IMG/VR virus record: IMGVR_UViG_3300045988_140506
From: a virus
Reading direction: 5' to 3' (one strand)
Length of the DNA stretch: 34,851 bases
Positions 9,792 to 31,654 of this stretch are shown piece after piece. The notes below the pieces were generated by a model. That model ran no database searches and was not told the DNA's origin. It saw nothing but the letters and a program-made list of their open reading frames with translations. Both the position numbers and the translations under genes were made by a program. Within the stretch, counting starts at the first letter, position 1, and every line of letters starts with the position of its first letter.

Positions 9792-10343
9792 TTATCTCAA
9801 TCTCCCCGCCGTAAGGCTTATGCTCGCCCTTGCCCTGTTGTATTCAATCGCATTGTTTTCTTTGTAAACTTTGTAATCGAAATCTCTTGCCTTTGTAGTG
9901 TACTTGAAGCCCAAAGAAGTTGAAGCGGAAATCACCCCGAACGCTGTTCCTAATAGAATTCCTAACGGTCCACCCGCCGCCCCGTAGGTTGCCCCCATAG
10001 CAACGGTCGAGGCAAAGCCTGTCGCGTCTTGGAAAATCTCTGCTTTGCGCTGGGCAAGTTCTTGCAAGGCTTGGTCGCCGTACTTGTCGCCCATACCTTG
10101 AATAGCGTAATTCACGCCCGTATTGATAAGTTGTTTGCTTATCGCTACTCCGTGAGTAATGTTTACACGGAGAAATTGCGCGGACTGTGCGTAGGTGCTT
10201 GCTTGTTTCTTACCGCTTGAAGTGGACGAAGTTTCCCCCGTTGATACTTCTTCGGCAGGCTTTTGTTTCGCGCCTTTTGTTGCAACACCGCCGTCTTTCC
10301 GCACGATAACTTCAATTCTTTGCGTACCCGATTGATAAAGCAT
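9792..10343 (-). CDS. Virion protein with a Gly/Ala-rich hydrophobic segment (internal, ejection or very short tape-measure-like)
   Basis: AAGGAG RBS lies before ATG 10343. The sequence ATGFASTVAMGATYGAAGGPLGILLGTAFGVISAS is membrane-active in character. It lies immediately upstream of the 1200-aa tail protein. Confidence 0.5.
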   Translation of the reverse strand: MLYQSGTQRIEVIVRKDGGVATKGAKQKPAEEVSTGETSSTSSGKKQASTYAQSAQFLRVNITHGVAISKQLINTGVNYAIQGMGDKYGDQALQELAQRKAEIFQDATGFASTVAMGATYGAAGGPLGILLGTAFGVISASTSLGFKYTTKARDFDYKVYKENNAIEYNRARASISLTAGRLR

Positions 10344-13677: not shown

Positions 13678-13686
13678 ATTATACAC
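13678..13686 (-). promoter_or_regulatory. GTGTATAAT -10-type element downstream of the capsid terminator
   Basis: The minus strand reads ATGTGTATAATATAAGTAAGGAG, about 20 nt upstream of the ATG at 13658. Confidence 0.4.
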
Positions 13687-13692
13687 ATAAAT

Positions 13693-15632: not shown

Positions 15633-15641
15633 ATTATACAC
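15633..15641 (-). promoter_or_regulatory. GTGTATAAT -10-type element between portal and scaffold genes
   Basis: The minus strand reads GGGATAGTGTATAATAATAATAAG in the 72-nt gap 15584-15655. Confidence 0.4.
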
Positions 15642-15655
15642 TATCCCTTGTGAAA

Positions 15656-17810: not shown

Positions 17811-19277
17811 TTATTTCTTAAAGCCTGCTAACTTTTTAATGTCGTTGTAATGCGCTTCTTGCTCGTAGTTTCTCTTTCGTATCGGGAAAGAAAGGTTGTA
17901 GCAATTACTGTAATAAGGCACAAGCGCGTACTCTAAACTGTCGCAACCGTCGTTCTTGATAGACGCGTCAAGTTTGCCTTTCTTATATCTTTGCGCCTCG
18001 ATTTCTTTGGCAAGTCTATGTTTATTCACTTCGCCGTTCCACATTGTCGTACCCTCGTTCATAATGGTAAGCACATTGTAGGCAAAAGCGTTTTTTATAA
18101 TGCCTAAGTTAACATCTTTCTTCTTCATCGTAAAGCCCTTAATGTCTATGTACTTCCACATTTTCTTTCGTGGCGAAGTCTTTTTCAAGTGCTTTAACTG
18201 TGCAATAAACGGGCTTGCCGCGCCGTCCACGCTCAAAATCGTATGTAATTGATTATACGCTATCCCGTACTTATTGTCTAAAAACTCTAAAAACTCGTCC
18301 AACAATTCGCACTGTTCCGTGGGCGCAAGGGTTCTGTTAGTTTCTTCGGGGTCGTCGTAGCACACTTCAAGCGTTTGCGCTGTCCCGTCGTCCAAAATGG
18401 CAACTGGCGTTACAAAGAAAGTGTCGTTCGCTGTCGCGTGGTCTATGCCGATTATCAGCGTAACAATGTAATGCTCGTCCAACTCGTAGGCTCTCTTGTA
18501 GTTTTTCGCCCTTGTAAATTGCGGGAAAACAACGTCGCTCGTGCTTGCGTGTATGTCGCCCAAAAACATTCGCCTAAACTCAATATAGTTTACTTTCTTG
18601 TAGTTCTCTATGTAGTTTCGCGTTTGTTCGTTCAACAGCCCCCAAATATTGTAGCAGTTCGCATAAATGTAGCACCACTCGGGGTCTTGTCTTTTGTCGT
18701 TTACAAAGTCTATAAACCAATGCCCCGCCGTTTCGCTGTTGCCTACCACTATCATTTTCGCCGACTTGTCAAGTTGTCGGATAAACGTCGCGATAGACTG
18801 TTCCACCACGTTGGCGTCCTTGTTCTTTTGCGCCTCTTCAAAAAGCACCAACGACAATTTGTTCTTTGTCGAAATACCCCTTGTTCGCTGACCGCCCTTG
18901 CTGTCCGTAATCGGATAAAAGTACGTCGCGCCTTGTTGCCCTTTGTGTACCACCCTATCGTGGGACTTCGGAATATACCAGTCGCGCGTTATGTCGTCGC
19001 CCACATCATACCCCGAATTGTTCAAAAACTTCTCTATCTCGTTAATGATACTGTCCTTGATTTCCGTCGCCGTGGCTTGCAAAATAACAATGTCCCTGTC
19101 AGGAAACTTGTTTATAAACACCCACCAAATAGCAACAAGAATACTCGTCTTGCCCGAAATTCGCCCCGATGACAGCACAAAATACCGATAGTTGTCATAA
19201 AATATCTCTTTGTACACATCTGGTATCAGCAAATTCGACGCCGACAACCCGTCATTGTTCACTACTTCCTTGCTCAT
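17811..19277 (-). CDS. terL: Terminase large subunit
   Basis: N-terminal Walker A-like SSGRISGKTS, a hydrophobic-strand-plus-acid LVLFEEAQ (Walker B-like), and a C-terminal nuclease-sized half. It follows terS with a 26-nt overlap. Confidence 0.9.
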   Translation of the reverse strand: MSKEVVNNDGLSASNLLIPDVYKEIFYDNYRYFVLSSGRISGKTSILVAIWWVFINKFPDRDIVILQATATEIKDSIINEIEKFLNNSGYDVGDDITRDWYIPKSHDRVVHKGQQGATYFYPITDSKGGQRTRGISTKNKLSLVLFEEAQKNKDANVVEQSIATFIRQLDKSAKMIVVGNSETAGHWFIDFVNDKRQDPEWCYIYANCYNIWGLLNEQTRNYIENYKKVNYIEFRRMFLGDIHASTSDVVFPQFTRAKNYKRAYELDEHYIVTLIIGIDHATANDTFFVTPVAILDDGTAQTLEVCYDDPEETNRTLAPTEQCELLDEFLEFLDNKYGIAYNQLHTILSVDGAASPFIAQLKHLKKTSPRKKMWKYIDIKGFTMKKKDVNLGIIKNAFAYNVLTIMNEGTTMWNGEVNKHRLAKEIEAQRYKKGKLDASIKNDGCDSLEYALVPYYSNCYNLSFPIRKRNYEQEAHYNDIKKLAGFKK

Positions 19278-19932
19278 CTTCCTTTACGTCCACAACCTCA
19301 AAATCTTTCTCGTCCAACACGACCTGATTTCGGCTGTCTTCCAACTCTTCTTTCTTGCTCGCGTCAACAATGTTCACCGTTATCCCGCCTATCTGCAAGT
19401 TGTCTATGCTCGGCATCATATTAAGCCCCAAAATCTTGTCCAGTTCATTCCTTGCCTTAATACGAATACTCACGTCGTCTATCTCTTCTATCTTCACCGA
19501 CTTAATCTTCCCGTTCTCGTCTTTCGTCGTCGTCCGCTTGTAACTCCGTATCTTCCCGTTCAGAATGTCCCGATAAAACTGTATCCGCCTCGCCGTTTCC
19601 CCGTCCGCCCCGTCTATCGTCTGCAAAAGTTTCTCCGCACTATCCTGCAACGCCAACGCGTCCACTTGCCTGTTCAACAAACTCTTGTCTTCCGTCAACT
19701 CCCGCGCCCGCTTATTCGTCGTCAACTTCGCTATAAGGTCTGCCAACACCTTATTCTCGCGCTCCATTATGTACGCCGCCTGGCTCGGGTTCCCGCTCGT
19801 GTACCCACTCATCTTGTAAGACTGCGCCTTCCCGTACCCCTTTCCACGAAAATCTACATATTTCTTCTGCCGCTCATTAAGCTTGTCATAGGCGCACTGC
19901 TCGTCTATCGTAAAACACGCGTATCTCCTCAT
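19252..19932 (-). CDS. terS: Terminase small subunit
   Basis: The N-terminus LNERQKKYVDFRGKGYGKAQSYKMSGYTSGNPSQAAYIMERENKV has the typical terS HTH pattern. AATAGGAGGCAGAG lies before the ATG. It is directly upstream of terL. Confidence 0.75.
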   Translation of the reverse strand: MRRYACFTIDEQCAYDKLNERQKKYVDFRGKGYGKAQSYKMSGYTSGNPSQAAYIMERENKVLADLIAKLTTNKRARELTEDKSLLNRQVDALALQDSAEKLLQTIDGADGETARRIQFYRDILNGKIRSYKRTTTKDENGKIKSVKIEEIDDVSIRIKARNELDKILGLNMMPSIDNLQIGGITVNIVDASKKEELEDSRNQVVLDEKDFEVVDVKEDEQGSSEQ

Positions 19933-19949: not shown

Positions 19950-19966
19950 ATTATACACCTTTTTAG
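19950..19966 (-). promoter_or_regulatory. Late promoter candidate before terS (CTAAAAAGGTGTATAAT)
   Basis: A TATAAT hexamer is preceded by AAAAAGGTG. This resembles the spacer plus -10 of the duplicated early promoter (TAAAAAGGGTGTATGAT), but there is no TTGACA-like -35. Confidence 0.45.
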
Positions 19967-20777: not shown

Positions 20778-20800
20778 AAAAAAGGGCTTTTTCAGCCCTT
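20778..20800 (-). terminator. Rho-independent terminator ending the early / GC-rich-island transcript
   Basis: Minus-strand RNA reads AAGGGCU-GAAAA-AGCCCUU followed by UUUU. It lies 22 nt after the stop at 20823. Confidence 0.75.
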
Positions 20801-20822
20801 TATAAATATATATGTTTTGATT

Positions 20823-21098
20823 TCAAAACCTCGTCAGAATCCAGATAGCAAACGCAAGACTTAATATCAGAATAAACGCCGTAATAGATAATGAAATAAT
20901 CCACTGCCACCCCTCGTCTGATTTTCGTCCGGAAGCGTTCTCTCTCACCCTGTTTTGTCGCTCCCGTTCTTTCTGCTTTCTCTTTTCAAGTTCTAACCGC
21001 TCGCGGGCGATTTTGAGTTTCTCGCGCTCAATCTCTGCGCGGTCGTCTGTCGTATCTGATAACGCTTTTTGTAGTTCTTCAAGACTTAATCTTTGCAC
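20823..21098 (-). CDS. Tail-anchored membrane protein with an N-terminal coiled coil (91 aa, GTG start)
   Basis: Listed as 20823..21260. I prefer the GTG at 21098, which has AAGGGGGG 7 nt upstream and lies just after the TAA of the 109-aa gene. The C-terminus WQWIISLSITAFILILSLAFAIWIL is a clear TM helix. Confidence 0.5.
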   Translation of the reverse strand: MQRLSLEELQKALSDTTDDRAEIEREKLKIARERLELEKRKQKERERQNRVRENASGRKSDEGWQWIISLSITAFILILSLAFAIWILTRF

Positions 21099-21111
21099 TG
21101 CATCGCCCCCC

Positions 21112-21441
21112 TTAATCTCTAAATCTGTAAACGGGTTCGGCGATTTCGTTTTCAATCGAAATCTCTTCGGGATAGTCCCATTCGGTATTCTCCGACCATT
21201 GCCCGACGGTCGCGCCCGCGCCGTCAATAACGCCATAAATCGCGGGTTTAATGAGTTCAAACGCTATCGTTTCGACGCGCCCGCTATCGCTGCGCCTGCC
21301 TGTTTCTACTTCAAAATCTGCGCTTCCGTATGTGCCGTCGCACTCGCTCGCCCACGTTTCTGCCTCGTCAAGGGTTTCACACGGGCTAAAACCGTTTTTT
21401 TCGCACCATTTTACAAAAGTTTTCGGGTTTGTTAATTTCAT
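21112..21441 (-). CDS. Strongly acidic 109-aa protein, function unknown
   Basis: AAAGGAGTTTTGAGAA lies before ATG 21441. By my count there are about 23 Asp/Glu against 10 Lys/Arg. The coding sequence is GC-rich. Confidence 0.65.
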   Translation of the reverse strand: MKLTNPKTFVKWCEKNGFSPCETLDEAETWASECDGTYGSADFEVETGRRSDSGRVETIAFELIKPAIYGVIDGAGATVGQWSENTEWDYPEEISIENEIAEPVYRFRD

Positions 21442-21546
21442 TTCTCAAAACTCCTTTATTTGTAGTACCCCGACGGGGAAAACGCTCTCACCGTCAGTCG
21501 CTCGCGGCTTAAACCCTATTTTTCCCCGCCGCGACGGGTTGCGCGG

Positions 21547-22197
21547 TTAGTCGCGCCATTTCAAGCCCTCAACCGCGATTTCGTTTAATTCGTGCGCTTT
21601 TGCGCTCGCAACGTCAAATGCCTTGCGGGTTTCGGCGGTCAGTCGCTCGATTTTATTCAAGTATTTTTCGATATTATCGATATACTTATTAGGGTTTGTG
21701 ATTTCCGCGACAGCTTCGGCGTGAATTGCGTTGTTTTCGTCAACGATTTTCGCGCGGTTTTTCGTCCAGCACTCCACGCCGCGTCCGTATGCTCCGCGCT
21801 CGCTGATGTTGATACTATCTTTTATTTGTGTAAGATAATTAGTCGAAAAATAAAACGAAAACCCTTTTTCGCGCATTTCGTCGCGGATTTTCTCGGCAGT
21901 TCTCTCGCCGTGCTTTTTGCCGTCGTATTTTTTCAAAACTTCCGCAAGGGCTTTTTTACCCGTTTCAACAAGTACATAATTATAATTATTACTTAGTACT
22001 TTGCCGCGTGCGCTTATGCGCTCGGCTTCTTTTTGTAACGTTTCAATTCTAAGCGACGTAAGCCGCGCCGCGTCGCGGTCGCCTGCCTTATGTGCGGCGA
22101 TAAAAGCGGCGTTGACGTTGTTGCGCTCTGCGCTCTTTGCGCGTTTGGCGTCCTGAGTTGTTTCAATTTCCTTTTTAATTTCTTGTAATGTTTTCAT
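21547..22197 (-). CDS. Hypothetical Ala/Arg/Lys-rich helical protein (216 aa; an alternative upstream in-frame start gives 254 aa)
   Basis: Listed as 21547..22311. The ATG at 22197 has AAAGGAGTAAAAAAA upstream. The upstream in-frame ATGs have poor SD context. The coding sequence is GC-rich. Confidence 0.6.
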   Translation of the reverse strand: MKTLQEIKKEIETTQDAKRAKSAERNNVNAAFIAAHKAGDRDAARLTSLRIETLQKEAERISARGKVLSNNYNYVLVETGKKALAEVLKKYDGKKHGERTAEKIRDEMREKGFSFYFSTNYLTQIKDSINISERGAYGRGVECWTKNRAKIVDENNAIHAEAVAEITNPNKYIDNIEKYLNKIERLTAETRKAFDVASAKAHELNEIAVEGLKWRD

Positions 22198-22364
22198 TTT
22201 TTTTACTCCTTTTGCGGGCTTACCGCCCTTGTTTTGTTGCCTTAATCTTATCACGGCGTCAACAATTTTGCAATACTTTGTCCATCCTTTTTTCATATAT
22301 CCACATATCAAAAAGGATATACTCTCCCCCGTCCCCTAATATTAAGGCACCCCCTTTTTGCTTT

Positions 22365-22409
22365 TCCCCAAAACAAAAACCCCGCCCAACGATTTTTTCC
22401 TATCGTATT
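22365..22409 (-). terminator. Compound hairpin plus U5 after the sigma-factor gene
   Basis: Minus-strand RNA reads CCCCCCCC-UUAAU-ACGAU-AGGAAAAA-AUCGU-U-GGGCGGGG-UUUUU. The outer stem is G/C and the inner stem is 5 bp. Confidence 0.55.
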
Positions 22410-22449
22410 AAGGGGGGGGTCTTTTTTCTTGTGCCTTATTATTTTGCTA

Positions 22450-22926
22450 TTAAGGGGGGGTTATCTGACGAGCCTTGCTTTTGATTGTTTCGATATGCTG
22501 ATGTAAGACGGGATAAGTACACTTGATTGTCTGTATCATTTCCTTTTGTCCATAGCCCTGTAAGTTGAGGTCTATTATTTGCCTTTCTACGGCGTTACAA
22601 CGGACTTTTAGTTGCTCTATGATAGTTGTGTCGAAGTCAGGCATTTCCGCGCCTTTAAGGGGCATTGCAAGGTCAAGGGCGGTTTCGTTAAAAGACTTTA
22701 CTGTTTCCTTTTTGTGTTGTCGCTTGATAAAATAGTAAACGTTCTTGTAAGCATAAGTTGTCCATTTTATGTTTCGGCTTTCGTCAAACCTTTCAATGCA
22801 CATACACATATACAAGATTGCGCTTTGCCTTAAATCTTCGTCGCCCGATAAACCTTGATTTTTAAGTGCCGTGTTTACAACCCATAAACTATTCTCAATA
22901 GTCGTCCGTTGCTCGTCCGTCAACAT
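22450..22926 (-). CDS. Phage-encoded sigma-70-family (small, ECF/SigK-like) RNA polymerase sigma factor
   Basis: A region-2-like segment reads RQSAILYMCMCIERFDESRNIKWTTYAYKNVYYFIKR. A region-4 HTH-like segment reads ERQIIDLNLQGYGQKEMIQTIKCTYPVLHQHIETIKSKAR. The ATG at 22926 has AAGGAG 5 nt upstream. The listed start at 22932 is a GTG. Confidence 0.8.
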   Translation of the reverse strand: MLTDEQRTTIENSLWVVNTALKNQGLSGDEDLRQSAILYMCMCIERFDESRNIKWTTYAYKNVYYFIKRQHKKETVKSFNETALDLAMPLKGAEMPDFDTTIIEQLKVRCNAVERQIIDLNLQGYGQKEMIQTIKCTYPVLHQHIETIKSKARQITPP

Positions 22927-22935
22927 ACCCACTCC

Positions 22936-23250
22936 TTAAAACGGCGTTTCTTCTTCCGCCTCTTCTTTCTTCGTTAATACAAAGTTCCAGCCCCTTACCG
23001 TCAATGCCCAGTTCGTTCTCGTGTCCGTAACAAAACTGTTCATCGAGCCGTAAAGTTCAATGGGACTGCCTTTCTTGAAATACTTTGCGATTGACTTTGC
23101 TTCTTTGTCCCACGCTACACACACAAAATAGTCTACTTTGTCTTTGCCGTCTTGTACCGCTACGCTAAATCTCGCGTTCGGCACGCCGTTTATCGTTTCC
23201 GTAAGGTCTACGTCCCGTACTAATCTTCCTGATATTGATATGTTGTTCAT
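22936..23250 (-). CDS. ssb: Single-stranded DNA-binding protein
   Basis: OB-fold-type N-terminus MNNISISGRLVRDVDLTETINGVPNARFSVAV and an acidic C-terminal tip EEAEEETPF, typical of SSB. Confidence 0.85.
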   Translation of the reverse strand: MNNISISGRLVRDVDLTETINGVPNARFSVAVQDGKDKVDYFVCVAWDKEAKSIAKYFKKGSPIELYGSMNSFVTDTRTNWALTVRGWNFVLTKKEEAEEETPF

Positions 23251-28735: not shown

Positions 28736-29830
28736 TTATCTATTGAGTTTATAACTGTATAACCCACTCTCAATGAGCCTTGTCATAAGTCTTTTTATCA
28801 TAATCGGCGGAACGCTCATACCGCATATATATTTAGGGTTTTGCCCGCAATAATTATAGTCTTGCGGGAATGTTTGTGCATTTATGATTTCATTTTGGTT
28901 AATTTTCGCTCCCCAATTCTCAATCCATATATCACATCCTCCTGCAACAAGTGTAGGACATATTTTGTTTCTATAAACAATGCGTTCAGTGAAATATGTA
29001 TCTTTATTATATAGCCTCTTCATTGTGTCACCAAGGTCTTTATCTTCTTTACTTGACAGCTTTGCAACTTCTGCCCTTTTTCCATTCTCAACAGCATGCT
29101 GTCCTGTCATAATATCCCCATACGTAATCGGCTCATAATTGAATGTAAGGTCAATATTTGACAAGTCAAAATTAAGTTTTGTTGCGACGAAAAATACTCT
29201 ATGTCTTGTTTGCGGAACGCCCATATCTTCGCCCTTTAACAGCCAATGCCTCACCGTATATCCTATTTCTCTGAATTTGGCATATATTTTTTCAATATAT
29301 TTATATGCATTGCCCAATAATAGCCCCTCGACATTTTCCATAATGACCGTTTTAGGACGAAATTTCGCAACTGTATCAATAAACACGAAAGATAAATCAT
29401 CAAGAGTTTGCTCGGATTGTCCCTCGCGAAATTTCTTTTTCTTTCCCCAACTATCTTCTCTTTCGCCAACCATCGAGAACGTCGTACAAGGCGGTGAGCC
29501 GTCAAGTATATCGAGGTTAAAAAGTTCTTCGGGCAAGTTTCCAAGTTCGTTGAATTTGCGAATATCCATAAGATAATTATATTTAGGTTTATGATTTGCA
29601 ACATATACGTCGTTCATCTTCTTGTCTATTTCGCAACAACCGAGAACGTCAACCCCACATAATTTATATCCCATTGTGCTACCACCGCCGCACGCAAAGC
29701 ACGAGAATGCAGTAAGCCCGTTTTTTTCAGGATAATCGGTCGCCATATTCCATTTCCAATCGGTAGATTTGATTGTCTTATAATCTGTAAGTGTTTCGTC
29801 AATATCCCATAATGCTATTTGTTCGTTCAT
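28736..29830 (-). CDS. DNA (cytosine-5) methyltransferase
   Basis: Motif I FACGGGS, motif IV GSPPCTTFS, motif VI ENVEGLL, motif VIII QTRHRVFFV and motif X GMSVPPIM are all present. ATG 29830 forms an ATGA overlap with the DnaC-like stop. The listed start 29836 is a TTG. Confidence 0.9.
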   Translation of the reverse strand: MNEQIALWDIDETLTDYKTIKSTDWKWNMATDYPEKNGLTAFSCFACGGGSTMGYKLCGVDVLGCCEIDKKMNDVYVANHKPKYNYLMDIRKFNELGNLPEELFNLDILDGSPPCTTFSMVGEREDSWGKKKKFREGQSEQTLDDLSFVFIDTVAKFRPKTVIMENVEGLLLGNAYKYIEKIYAKFREIGYTVRHWLLKGEDMGVPQTRHRVFFVATKLNFDLSNIDLTFNYEPITYGDIMTGQHAVENGKRAEVAKLSSKEDKDLGDTMKRLYNKDTYFTERIVYRNKICPTLVAGGCDIWIENWGAKINQNEIINAQTFPQDYNYCGQNPKYICGMSVPPIMIKRLMTRLIESGLYSYKLNR

Positions 29831-30621
29831 CTCCAATTATCCCCCTTGACTTCAACTTGCTCGCACATTTCCCTTATGCGGTCAACGGTAACAACGTCAT
29901 ATCCTTTTCTCATAAGTTCGCTCAAAGTGCAGTTCGACGTGATTATGACCGGTCTTTCGCCGATATATCGGTCGTTGATTACATTGTAGATTTTCGACTG
30001 TAACCACGTGTCTTGATTGTTTTTCATAACAACGTCTTTGCCGAAATCGTCCAAAAACAAAAAGTCGCACTGTTTAATTTCTTGCAGTTCAGCCTTGTCG
30101 TTTTCGTAAATAAGGTCAATAATTCGGTTTATGTTCGTAAACTTGACCTTAAAACCTTGCTCTAAAAGGTCATTCGCCATACACGCTGATATATGCGTTT
30201 TGCCCATTCCCGTCTTGCCGTAAATATACAGTCCTTTGCCGTCTTTAAATTTTTGTCTTGCGTTCGTACAATAGTCTTTGCACTCGCCCATTGCGTTCTC
30301 AAAGTCCGCCGTTCCTTTCGTACTCGCAACAAAACTCACCTTTGAATATCTCTCGTCCATTAACGATATTTCTTTGAGCCGTGCGATTTTCTGCAATATT
30401 TCCCATTTCTTTTCTTCGTCCTCGATTTCACGGTTTCGTTTGTCCCGACACTCGCAAGCACACATTATAAGATTGCCGTTTTCGTCGATAAGGTCAGGCA
30501 TTGCTCGCGGCGTGTTGCAGTTCGCACAATACAACACATCGTCTTTTATATAATCGCCGTCGGTCATCGTGCGTTCGTATTTCCTTAATGCCAATAGATA
30601 TAAGTTTTTATCTCGTTTCAT
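29827..30621 (-). CDS. DnaC/IstB-like AAA+ helicase-loader ATPase with an N-terminal Cys cluster
   Basis: Walker A GKTGMGKTH, Walker B DFLFLDDFG, and the N-terminal pattern CANCNTP...CACECRDK. AAGGAGTAAATT lies before the ATG. Confidence 0.85.
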   Translation of the reverse strand: MKRDKNLYLLALRKYERTMTDGDYIKDDVLYCANCNTPRAMPDLIDENGNLIMCACECRDKRNREIEDEEKKWEILQKIARLKEISLMDERYSKVSFVASTKGTADFENAMGECKDYCTNARQKFKDGKGLYIYGKTGMGKTHISACMANDLLEQGFKVKFTNINRIIDLIYENDKAELQEIKQCDFLFLDDFGKDVVMKNNQDTWLQSKIYNVINDRYIGERPVIITSNCTLSELMRKGYDVVTVDRIREMCEQVEVKGDNWR

Positions 30622-31625: not shown

Positions 31626-31654
31626 ATCATACACCCTTTTTAAGCGATTGTCAA
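31626..31654 (-). promoter_or_regulatory. Sigma-70-type early promoter, copy 1 (TTGACA-N17-TATGAT)
   Basis: The minus strand reads TTGACAATCGCTTAAAAAGGGTGTATGAT, with a consensus -35 and 17-nt spacing. It lies about 140 nt upstream of the organiser gene. Confidence 0.7.

Follow-up and report, generated by a model that had tools for sequence, protein, structure and literature searches.

The IMG/VR record IMGVR_UViG_3300045988_140506 is a complete virus genome of 34,851 bp with terminal repeats, and this whole stretch is referred to here as the window. We describe a unit of three genes, p216, p109, and p91, with a pistol self-cleaving ribozyme between the first two. As all genes of the locus are on the minus strand, they are listed in the order in which they would be read. 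A gene for a single-stranded DNA-binding protein (22936-23250) is followed by one for a sigma-70-like protein (22450-22932; phrog_351, 5.6e-8, and TIGR02937, 3e-6, in profile searches), then by the three-gene unit and, beyond an AT-rich gap of about 890 nt, by terS (19252-19932) and terL. The first gene, p216 (21547-22197), starts with ATG, encodes 216 amino acids (aa), and is the usual head gene of the array. The second, p109 (21112-21441), encodes an acidic protein of 109 aa and is a swappable cassette, while p91 (20823-21098) starts with GTG and encodes a tail-anchored membrane protein of 91 aa, with a charged coiled-coil N-terminal part and 24 hydrophobic residues at the C terminus. An earlier note, made from the DNA letters alone, had proposed these three open reading frames (ORFs) and their starts, including the GTG, together with the tail anchor of p91 and the acidity of p109. 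All of these are confirmed, the last by 23 acidic and 10 basic residues, a pI of 4.26, and a net charge of -13.

A pistol ribozyme in the p216-p109 spacer

The spacer between p216 and p109, which is 105 nt long and GC-rich, contains an element that the earlier note overlooked. At 21463-21539 (-), it matches the pistol self-cleaving ribozyme (Rfam RF02679), reportedly described by Weinberg et al. in 2015, with 48.4 bits (gathering score, 34.5; E = 5e-6 over the whole window). This is the sole Rfam match in the window. The window copy resembles the class as defined by Harris et al. 2015 (PMC4604425) in matching the model over its full length (positions 1-68 of 68) and in having P1, the P1-loop pseudoknot, an A-rich linker, P2, an extended P3, and a two-nucleotide GU junction. 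Its place beside phage genes, in a gut phage of the Firmicute type, is also one described for the class. It differs in having an A.G mismatch at the P3 base, where the class has a U.G pair, in a mismatched P1 closing pair, in a P3 longer by 5 pairs, and in the conserved hairpin that precedes it. The published structural definitions place the scissile bond within the two-nucleotide junction, usually GU (PMC4604425). In our covariance model alignment, the GU junction between P3 and P2 puts the predicted cleavage site between G21468 and U21467 (21467-21468, -), 26 nt before the p109 start, with the ribosome-binding site (RBS) of p109 in the leader.

Comparison of eight copies supports the fold. 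Pairing of P1, the pseudoknot, P2, and P3 amounts to 92.9%, as opposed to 39 to 50% with the partners slid, and there are two compensatory pairs, in P2 and P3. The 7-bp pseudoknot (UCGCGGC / GCCGCGA) is 100% paired in the eight copies, with one G-C to G-U change; in the window copy, P1, P2, and P3 each have a mismatched closing pair. A stop-codon hairpin, GCGCG-ACUAAC-CGCGC (21541-21556, -), immediately adjoins the ribozyme on its 5' side; this hairpin carries the p216 stop codon in its loop, and its 3' arm is invariant in the eight aligned copies.

The ribozyme and p216 are closely linked. The same ribozyme is found 8 to 14 nt after p216 in nine further loci, with 41 to 60 bits. When the search was started from the ribozyme side, the pattern of this subtype gave 18 matches in metagenomes, corresponding to 17 real loci, 15 of which have p216 directly upstream; in the virus collection, all loci with this subtype are linked to p216. 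The remaining two metagenome loci (L059:6345-6995 and L064:6890-7540, minus strand) have an unrelated gene, also of 216 aa (MY.NL.EKITAY...), whose last codons form a like stop-codon hairpin. Its product has no Pfam match, and hhalign gives a probability of 0.4% for a relationship to the p216 family. As hairpin and pistol follow an unrelated gene here, the ribozyme module can evidently be attached to another head gene. A general tie between pistol ribozymes and p216 was considered and rejected, since in one bacterial case (L047) the gene before the pistol is small and unrelated. For distant p216 members, no ribozyme was found at E values up to 1.

Downstream of the ribozyme, the picture is one of variety at a fixed distance. 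A downstream ORF is present in 22 loci; in 20 of them it begins 20 to 33 nt behind the ribozyme, the distance being 20 to 26 nt in most loci. These ORFs belong to at least eight families, including p109, a very acidic protein of 190 aa, and proteins of 55, 63, 73, 82, and 95 aa. In one locus (L061:9334-9567), the ribozyme is immediately followed by a gene for a 77-aa chimera, in which the first 39 residues of p216 are joined to a C-terminal portion of the 63-aa protein that is common among the cassettes; this looks like a recombination scar.

A conserved locus with an exchanged interior

To see how the unit varies, we compared the locus from the sigma-like gene to terS among phages of the same lineage, whose terL is about 92% identical, and checked 13 relatives overall. 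Related contigs originate from human-gut metagenomes. With blastn and tblastn against GenBank phages, no match was obtained for the region, p216, p109, a distant p216 member, or terL, and INPHARED likewise gave none. One same-lineage relative, L066, which is among the nine further loci with p216 and the ribozyme, has the gene order of the window and a pistol of 59.7 bits. Elsewhere in the lineage the interior differs: p216 and p91 only (L019); p216 preceded by at most two genes and followed by a 63-aa gene, one or two others, and p91 (L018 and L037-L040); a p109-like gene, a p216-like gene, and p91 (L067); or a single other gene and p91, with no p216 (L016 and L017). Most same-lineage relatives are without the ribozyme, and there the 63-aa gene begins 23 to 31 nt after p216. 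Even the distant relatives L030 and L020 have p216-like and p91-like genes in the same place, between the sigma-like gene and terS.

Presence and absence thus fall unevenly on the three genes. A p91 homologue of 85 to 103 aa (20 homologues were collected) stands directly before the terS gap in 13 of 13 relatives, and a p216-family gene occurs in 11 of 13, being missing in two, which shows that both behave as backbone genes of the locus. It is p109 that is variable, being missing from most close relatives. The suggestion that the whole unit is an insertion is therefore not supported.

The second lineage in which p216 occurs consists of phages of about 45 kb with unrelated neighbouring genes and a T7-type terminase on the other strand. 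Its array runs from p216 and the ribozyme through variable small genes, many of them common to the first lineage, to an FtsK-like ATPase. Its large terminase, of 1007 aa, contains an intein (PF14890, Intein_splicing; L011:1-2028). The two lineages have in common a head, which consists of the promoter, p216, the ribozyme, and the RBS and whose DNA is about 80% identical between them. Alignments with the window show mosaic breakpoints. In L038, collinearity with the window ends at the p216 stop and resumes at codon 20 of p91; in L011, it extends through p216, the ribozyme, and p109, with the breakpoint after p109; and in five further loci it covers p216 and the ribozyme only, the breakpoint lying just after the ribozyme and RBS.

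Some cassettes of the arrays can be assigned. In L020 (IMGVR_UViG_3300001525_000183), the array contains an RtcB RNA ligase (L020:1661-2914; PF01139, E = 8.5e-65), with three tRNA genes just upstream (L020:213-708); no pistol was found in the L020 locus. RtcB joins the end types made by self-cleaving ribozymes and anticodon nucleases. Another cassette, of 185 aa (L004:3394-3951 and L039:2891-3448), resembles half of a beta sliding clamp, with matches to phrog_947 (DNA polymerase processivity factor, 3.9e-8) and Pfam DNA_pol3_beta_2 (2.5e-4).

The signals around the genes are conserved as well. A host sigma-A-type promoter is predicted from the sequence at 22245-22273 (-), with TTGCAA, a 17-nt spacer containing TG, and TAAGAT. 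In the upstream alignment, the columns TTG..AA and CCGTG.TA..AT are invariant, and relatives have TTGACA-N17-TGnTATGAT. Upstream of it lies an operator-like palindrome, ATATC-N6-GATAT (22305-22320, -), found in seven of eight aligned upstream regions from both lineages. Between promoter and gene, a leader hairpin (GGGC-loop-GCCC; 22216-22228, -) stands just before the RBS of the first gene and has a GCAA tetraloop in relatives. Promoter and leader are kept in eight loci of both lineages, whatever the first gene is. The promoter belongs to one class with the phage early promoter near 31650, and the late GTGTATAAT element is absent before p216; early transcription of the unit, by the host polymerase, is therefore most likely. 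At 19950-19959, 15633-15642, and 13678-13687 (-), terS, the scaffold gene, and a 154-aa gene after the capsid gene are preceded by (G)GTGTATAAT elements that have no -35. These agree with a separate late class of promoters, which the phage sigma-like protein perhaps reads.

At its 3' end the unit has an intrinsic terminator, GGGCU-GAAAA-AGCCC followed by U6 (20778-20800, -; -11.8 kcal/mol, z = -2.4), within DNA conserved among relatives. Of the two bracketing terminators that had been proposed, this classical hairpin stands, whereas the one after the sigma-like gene, a branched hairpin with a U-run (22371-22420, -; -21.8 kcal/mol), is weak and no better than shuffled sequences (z = -1.2). A consensus scan called neither. 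With its own conserved promoter, a good downstream terminator, and variable inner genes, the locus is the autonomous unit at the early/late boundary that the earlier note had suggested.

Composition and the three proteins

The same note had described the three genes as a GC-rich and compositionally foreign island rich in Ala and Arg, with GCG and CGC codons. The first part is weakly supported: the GC content of the three-gene stretch is 0.468 against a window mean of 0.429, or +1.4 standard deviations (0.028 for same-size windows), and 7.6% of same-size windows are equally or more GC-rich. Moreover, terS, the capsid gene, and 9792-10343 have a GC content equal to or above it. At third codon positions (GC3), the three genes, at 0.46 to 0.52, do not differ from the mean of 0.48. 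A real compositional difference is seen in the observed/expected ratio of CpG, which is 2.16 in p216 and 1.94 in p109 as opposed to a mean of 1.54 (standard deviation 0.19). CpG is over-represented across the whole window, with a ratio of about 1.5 in nearly every gene, and the phage encodes a C5 cytosine methyltransferase (28736-29836; PF00145, 8.5e-40). The three proteins are indeed richer than the rest in Ala (10.0% versus 6.4%) and Arg (7.9% versus 3.7%), and CGC makes up 0.52 of their Arg codons as opposed to 0.14, but the share of GCG among Ala codons is unchanged. The raised GC and CpG are explained by the Ala/Arg-rich proteins, the preference for CGC, and the GC-rich spacer. Since the earlier note had itself named an unshifted GC and codon usage as grounds for giving up its reading, and GC3 and codon usage are unshifted, the description as compositionally foreign has to be withdrawn.

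Nor are the three genes ORFans in the full sense, as all have homologues in metagenomes, although no significant match was found in Pfam, PHROG, NCBIfam, PADLOC, the PDB, or INPHARED. The largest family is that of p216, a basic protein (pI 9.3). There are more than 247 matches of 77 to 83% identity, all of 216 to 217 aa, on contigs of 35 to 47 kb, and an exhaustive search yields 185 further clusters of 24 to 37% identity, nearly all of 200 to 250 aa. In the species-genome collection, a single weak relative was found. Common to the clusters are N71, a K-Y-x-G-K-x-x-G-x-x-T loop, N156, Y172, and N205. No consistent Pfam or PHROG match was obtained for 49 members of the family, and a family profile run against the PDB returned coiled-coil noise only. 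The AlphaFold2 (AF2) model is confident (pLDDT 90.8, pTM 0.81) and combines a long helical hairpin with a small alpha/beta domain and a helix at the C terminus; Foldseek found no fold match for it in the PDB. Two candidate assignments were rejected. Similarity to ESCRT-III/CHMP proteins (best E = 0.088, CHMP3; TM 0.32 to 0.33; root mean square deviation >10 A) is confined to the helical hairpin. The sequence GKKHGERT, which recalls a P-loop NTPase, reads G-x3-G-x-K/R-T rather than GxxxxGK[ST] and is placed between two helices in the model. p216 thus defines a large phage protein family, whose fold, as confidently predicted, is without known relative.

For p109, we collected 20 homologues of 48 to 100% identity, the latter being the window's own protein. 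All are acidic (pI 4.3 to 5.0) and have conserved N- and C-terminal motifs. The AF2 model is mediocre (pLDDT 73), with two helices and a six-stranded sheet. Foldseek searches with it gave best E values of 0.26 in the PDB and 0.039 in BFVD, with TM below 0.3, and revealed no known DNA-mimic fold, while Pfam, PHROG, NCBIfam, and PADLOC gave no match. No link to Ocr, ArdA, or any known family was found by sequence or fold. p109 is like T7 Ocr and ArdA in being small, acidic, and probably expressed early; it differs in its lack of sequence or fold similarity, in its mixed alpha/beta model, and in a net charge of only -13. The post-ribozyme slot also holds the 190-aa protein mentioned above (L007:4715-5287 and L009:2991-3563), which has 54 acidic residues and a pI of 4.05. 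The N-terminal, KPA.Y, and EAV.. motifs, common to both, hint at a relationship to p109, but the hhalign probability, at 4%, is not significant.

Interpretation of the unit

We consider that 20778-22320 (-) is probably a phage accessory-gene operon with a conserved backbone and an exchanged interior, in which a ribozyme processes the RNA between the head gene and the slot behind it. Host RNA polymerase would transcribe the unit early, and the nascent RNA would cut itself between G21468 and U21467. One product would be a p216 message that has the folded ribozyme and a 2',3'-cyclic phosphate at its end, and the other a p109-p91 message with a 26-nt 5'-OH leader, so that expression and stability of the head gene would be uncoupled from those of the downstream cassette. 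In Firmicutes, a 5'-OH end serves as an entry site for RNase J1, as for the glmS ribozyme, and the downstream genes would therefore probably be turned down. As to the proteins, our best guess is host takeover or counter-defence, on account of the variability of the array, the RtcB and clamp-like cassettes of relatives, and the precedent of ardA (PMC3088659).

Several observations weigh against this interpretation. The window ribozyme scores 48 bits, where relatives have 41 to 60 and most of them 52 to 60. It alone among 18 distinct copies has A for U at the base of P3, adjoining the scissile bond, and its P1 closing pair is G.A, not A-U. Because of the substitution in P3 and the lower score, the window copy is possibly less active, and judging by its sequence it may be slow or inactive. 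In the -35 (TTGCAA) and -10 (TAAGAT) together, only 8 of the 12 positions agree with the consensus, and a consensus scan missed the unit promoter. Transcripts from upstream may also run into the unit, given the weak terminator behind the sigma-like gene. Finally, p216 and p91 are too conserved for typical accessory genes, and none of the three proteins could be linked to a function.

This last conservation suggests another explanation, namely that p216 and p91 are conserved helpers of late functions, placed by the packaging genes and serving, for example, in membrane anchoring or in preparing DNA for packaging, with only the small genes between them as passengers. The constant position of p91-type genes directly before the gap that precedes terS, the occurrence of the p216 family in nearly all relatives and at the same position in the distant L030 and L020, and the second-lineage array, which adjoins terminase genes and ends in an FtsK-like ATPase, would agree with such a role. 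So would p216 itself, which is basic and whose invariant K-Y-x-G-K-x-x-G-x-x-T loop, at a helix N terminus, could bind phosphate. Yet L016 and L017 are close relatives that do without p216, the promoter is of the early host type and not of the late GTGTATAAT type, p216 passes between lineages with packaging genes of unrelated kinds, and it has no similarity to known packaging or replication proteins. On balance, we regard this explanation as unlikely.

It is likewise doubtful that the pistol of the window is a decaying passenger, brought in by recombination with the second lineage and acting as a mere spacer. The U-to-A change that only the window copy has in P3, the lower score, and the absence of a ribozyme from most same-lineage relatives are what such a history would leave. 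Against it, the score is still 14 bits over the curated cut-off, and neither the pseudoknot nor any other conserved position is disrupted. In addition, the ribozyme is 93% identical across copies, as opposed to about 80 to 83% for the adjoining p216 DNA, which indicates purifying selection on the element in general.

The proposal of the earlier note, a horizontally acquired moron with p109 as a DNA-mimic anti-restriction or anti-defence factor, has in its favor the unit's own promoter and terminator, the patchy occurrence of p109, the conserved acidity of its family, the second, even more acidic protein in the same slot, RtcB in the array of one relative, and the Agrobacterium prophage whose ardA, an anti-restriction gene, has hammerheads flanking it (PMC3088659), but we find it improbable, given unshifted GC3 and codon usage, a locus whose p91 and usually p216 are conserved in the lineage, a charge that is modest for a DNA mimic, a predicted p109 fold that matches nothing in the PDB or BFVD, and the lack of a Pfam, PHROG, or PADLOC match. 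What the unit has in common with the morons of temperate phages is, on sequence evidence, a promoter and terminator of its own and the presence or absence of inner genes; what sets it apart is that the locus is kept in every relative and that its composition is not foreign, so that the architecture is moron-like in part only. Among ten early proteins scanned, which include Sak, a DnaC-like protein, a replisome organiser, and the C5 methyltransferase, there is no integrase or repressor; a classical moron expressed from a prophage is thus unlikely, and the comparison with prophage expression does not apply.

Published work on phage ribozymes agrees with the accessory-gene operon proposed here. 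Ribozymes flanking phage genes have been described, and processing of polycistronic RNA is their proposed role (PMC3088659, PMC4604425, PMC6765202). As with phage-operon hammerheads (Perreault et al. 2011, PMC3088659; reviewed in PMC6765202), the pistol lies after a stop codon and before the next RBS, among inconstant neighbours. Unlike those, it is a single ribozyme and does not form an array, its link to one family of upstream genes is tight, both in the metagenome loci and throughout the virus collection, and it lies where a conserved head gene gives way to a variable slot.

We tentatively add a bolder idea, which we think has a small chance of being right. Promoter, leader, p216, stop-codon hairpin, pistol, and RBS together might form a portable expression head, in which the near-identical ribozyme and RBS would serve two lineages as a junction for swapping cassettes while the ribozyme insulates the head message. 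The ribozyme-RBS junction is 93% conserved, and the flanks are about 80% identical or unrelated. If true, this would provide a concrete biological role for pistol ribozymes and a cassette-exchange system for phage accessory genes.

That pistol ribozymes occur next to phage genes was already known (PMC4604425), and their biological role is still unsolved (PMC6765202). What is new here is modest: the fixed pairing with one large uncharacterised family, the place at the head of a cassette slot, and a head common to two lineages. The reading of the locus as a foreign GC island is corrected, and p216 is brought to attention as a large uncharacterised phage family. One pistol subtype thus has a fixed address, after a conserved head gene that looks highly expressed and before a slot filled by at least eight kinds of gene, in two lineages of human-gut phages. 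This fixed address makes a simple hypothesis testable, that the ribozyme insulates and tunes the cassette slot.

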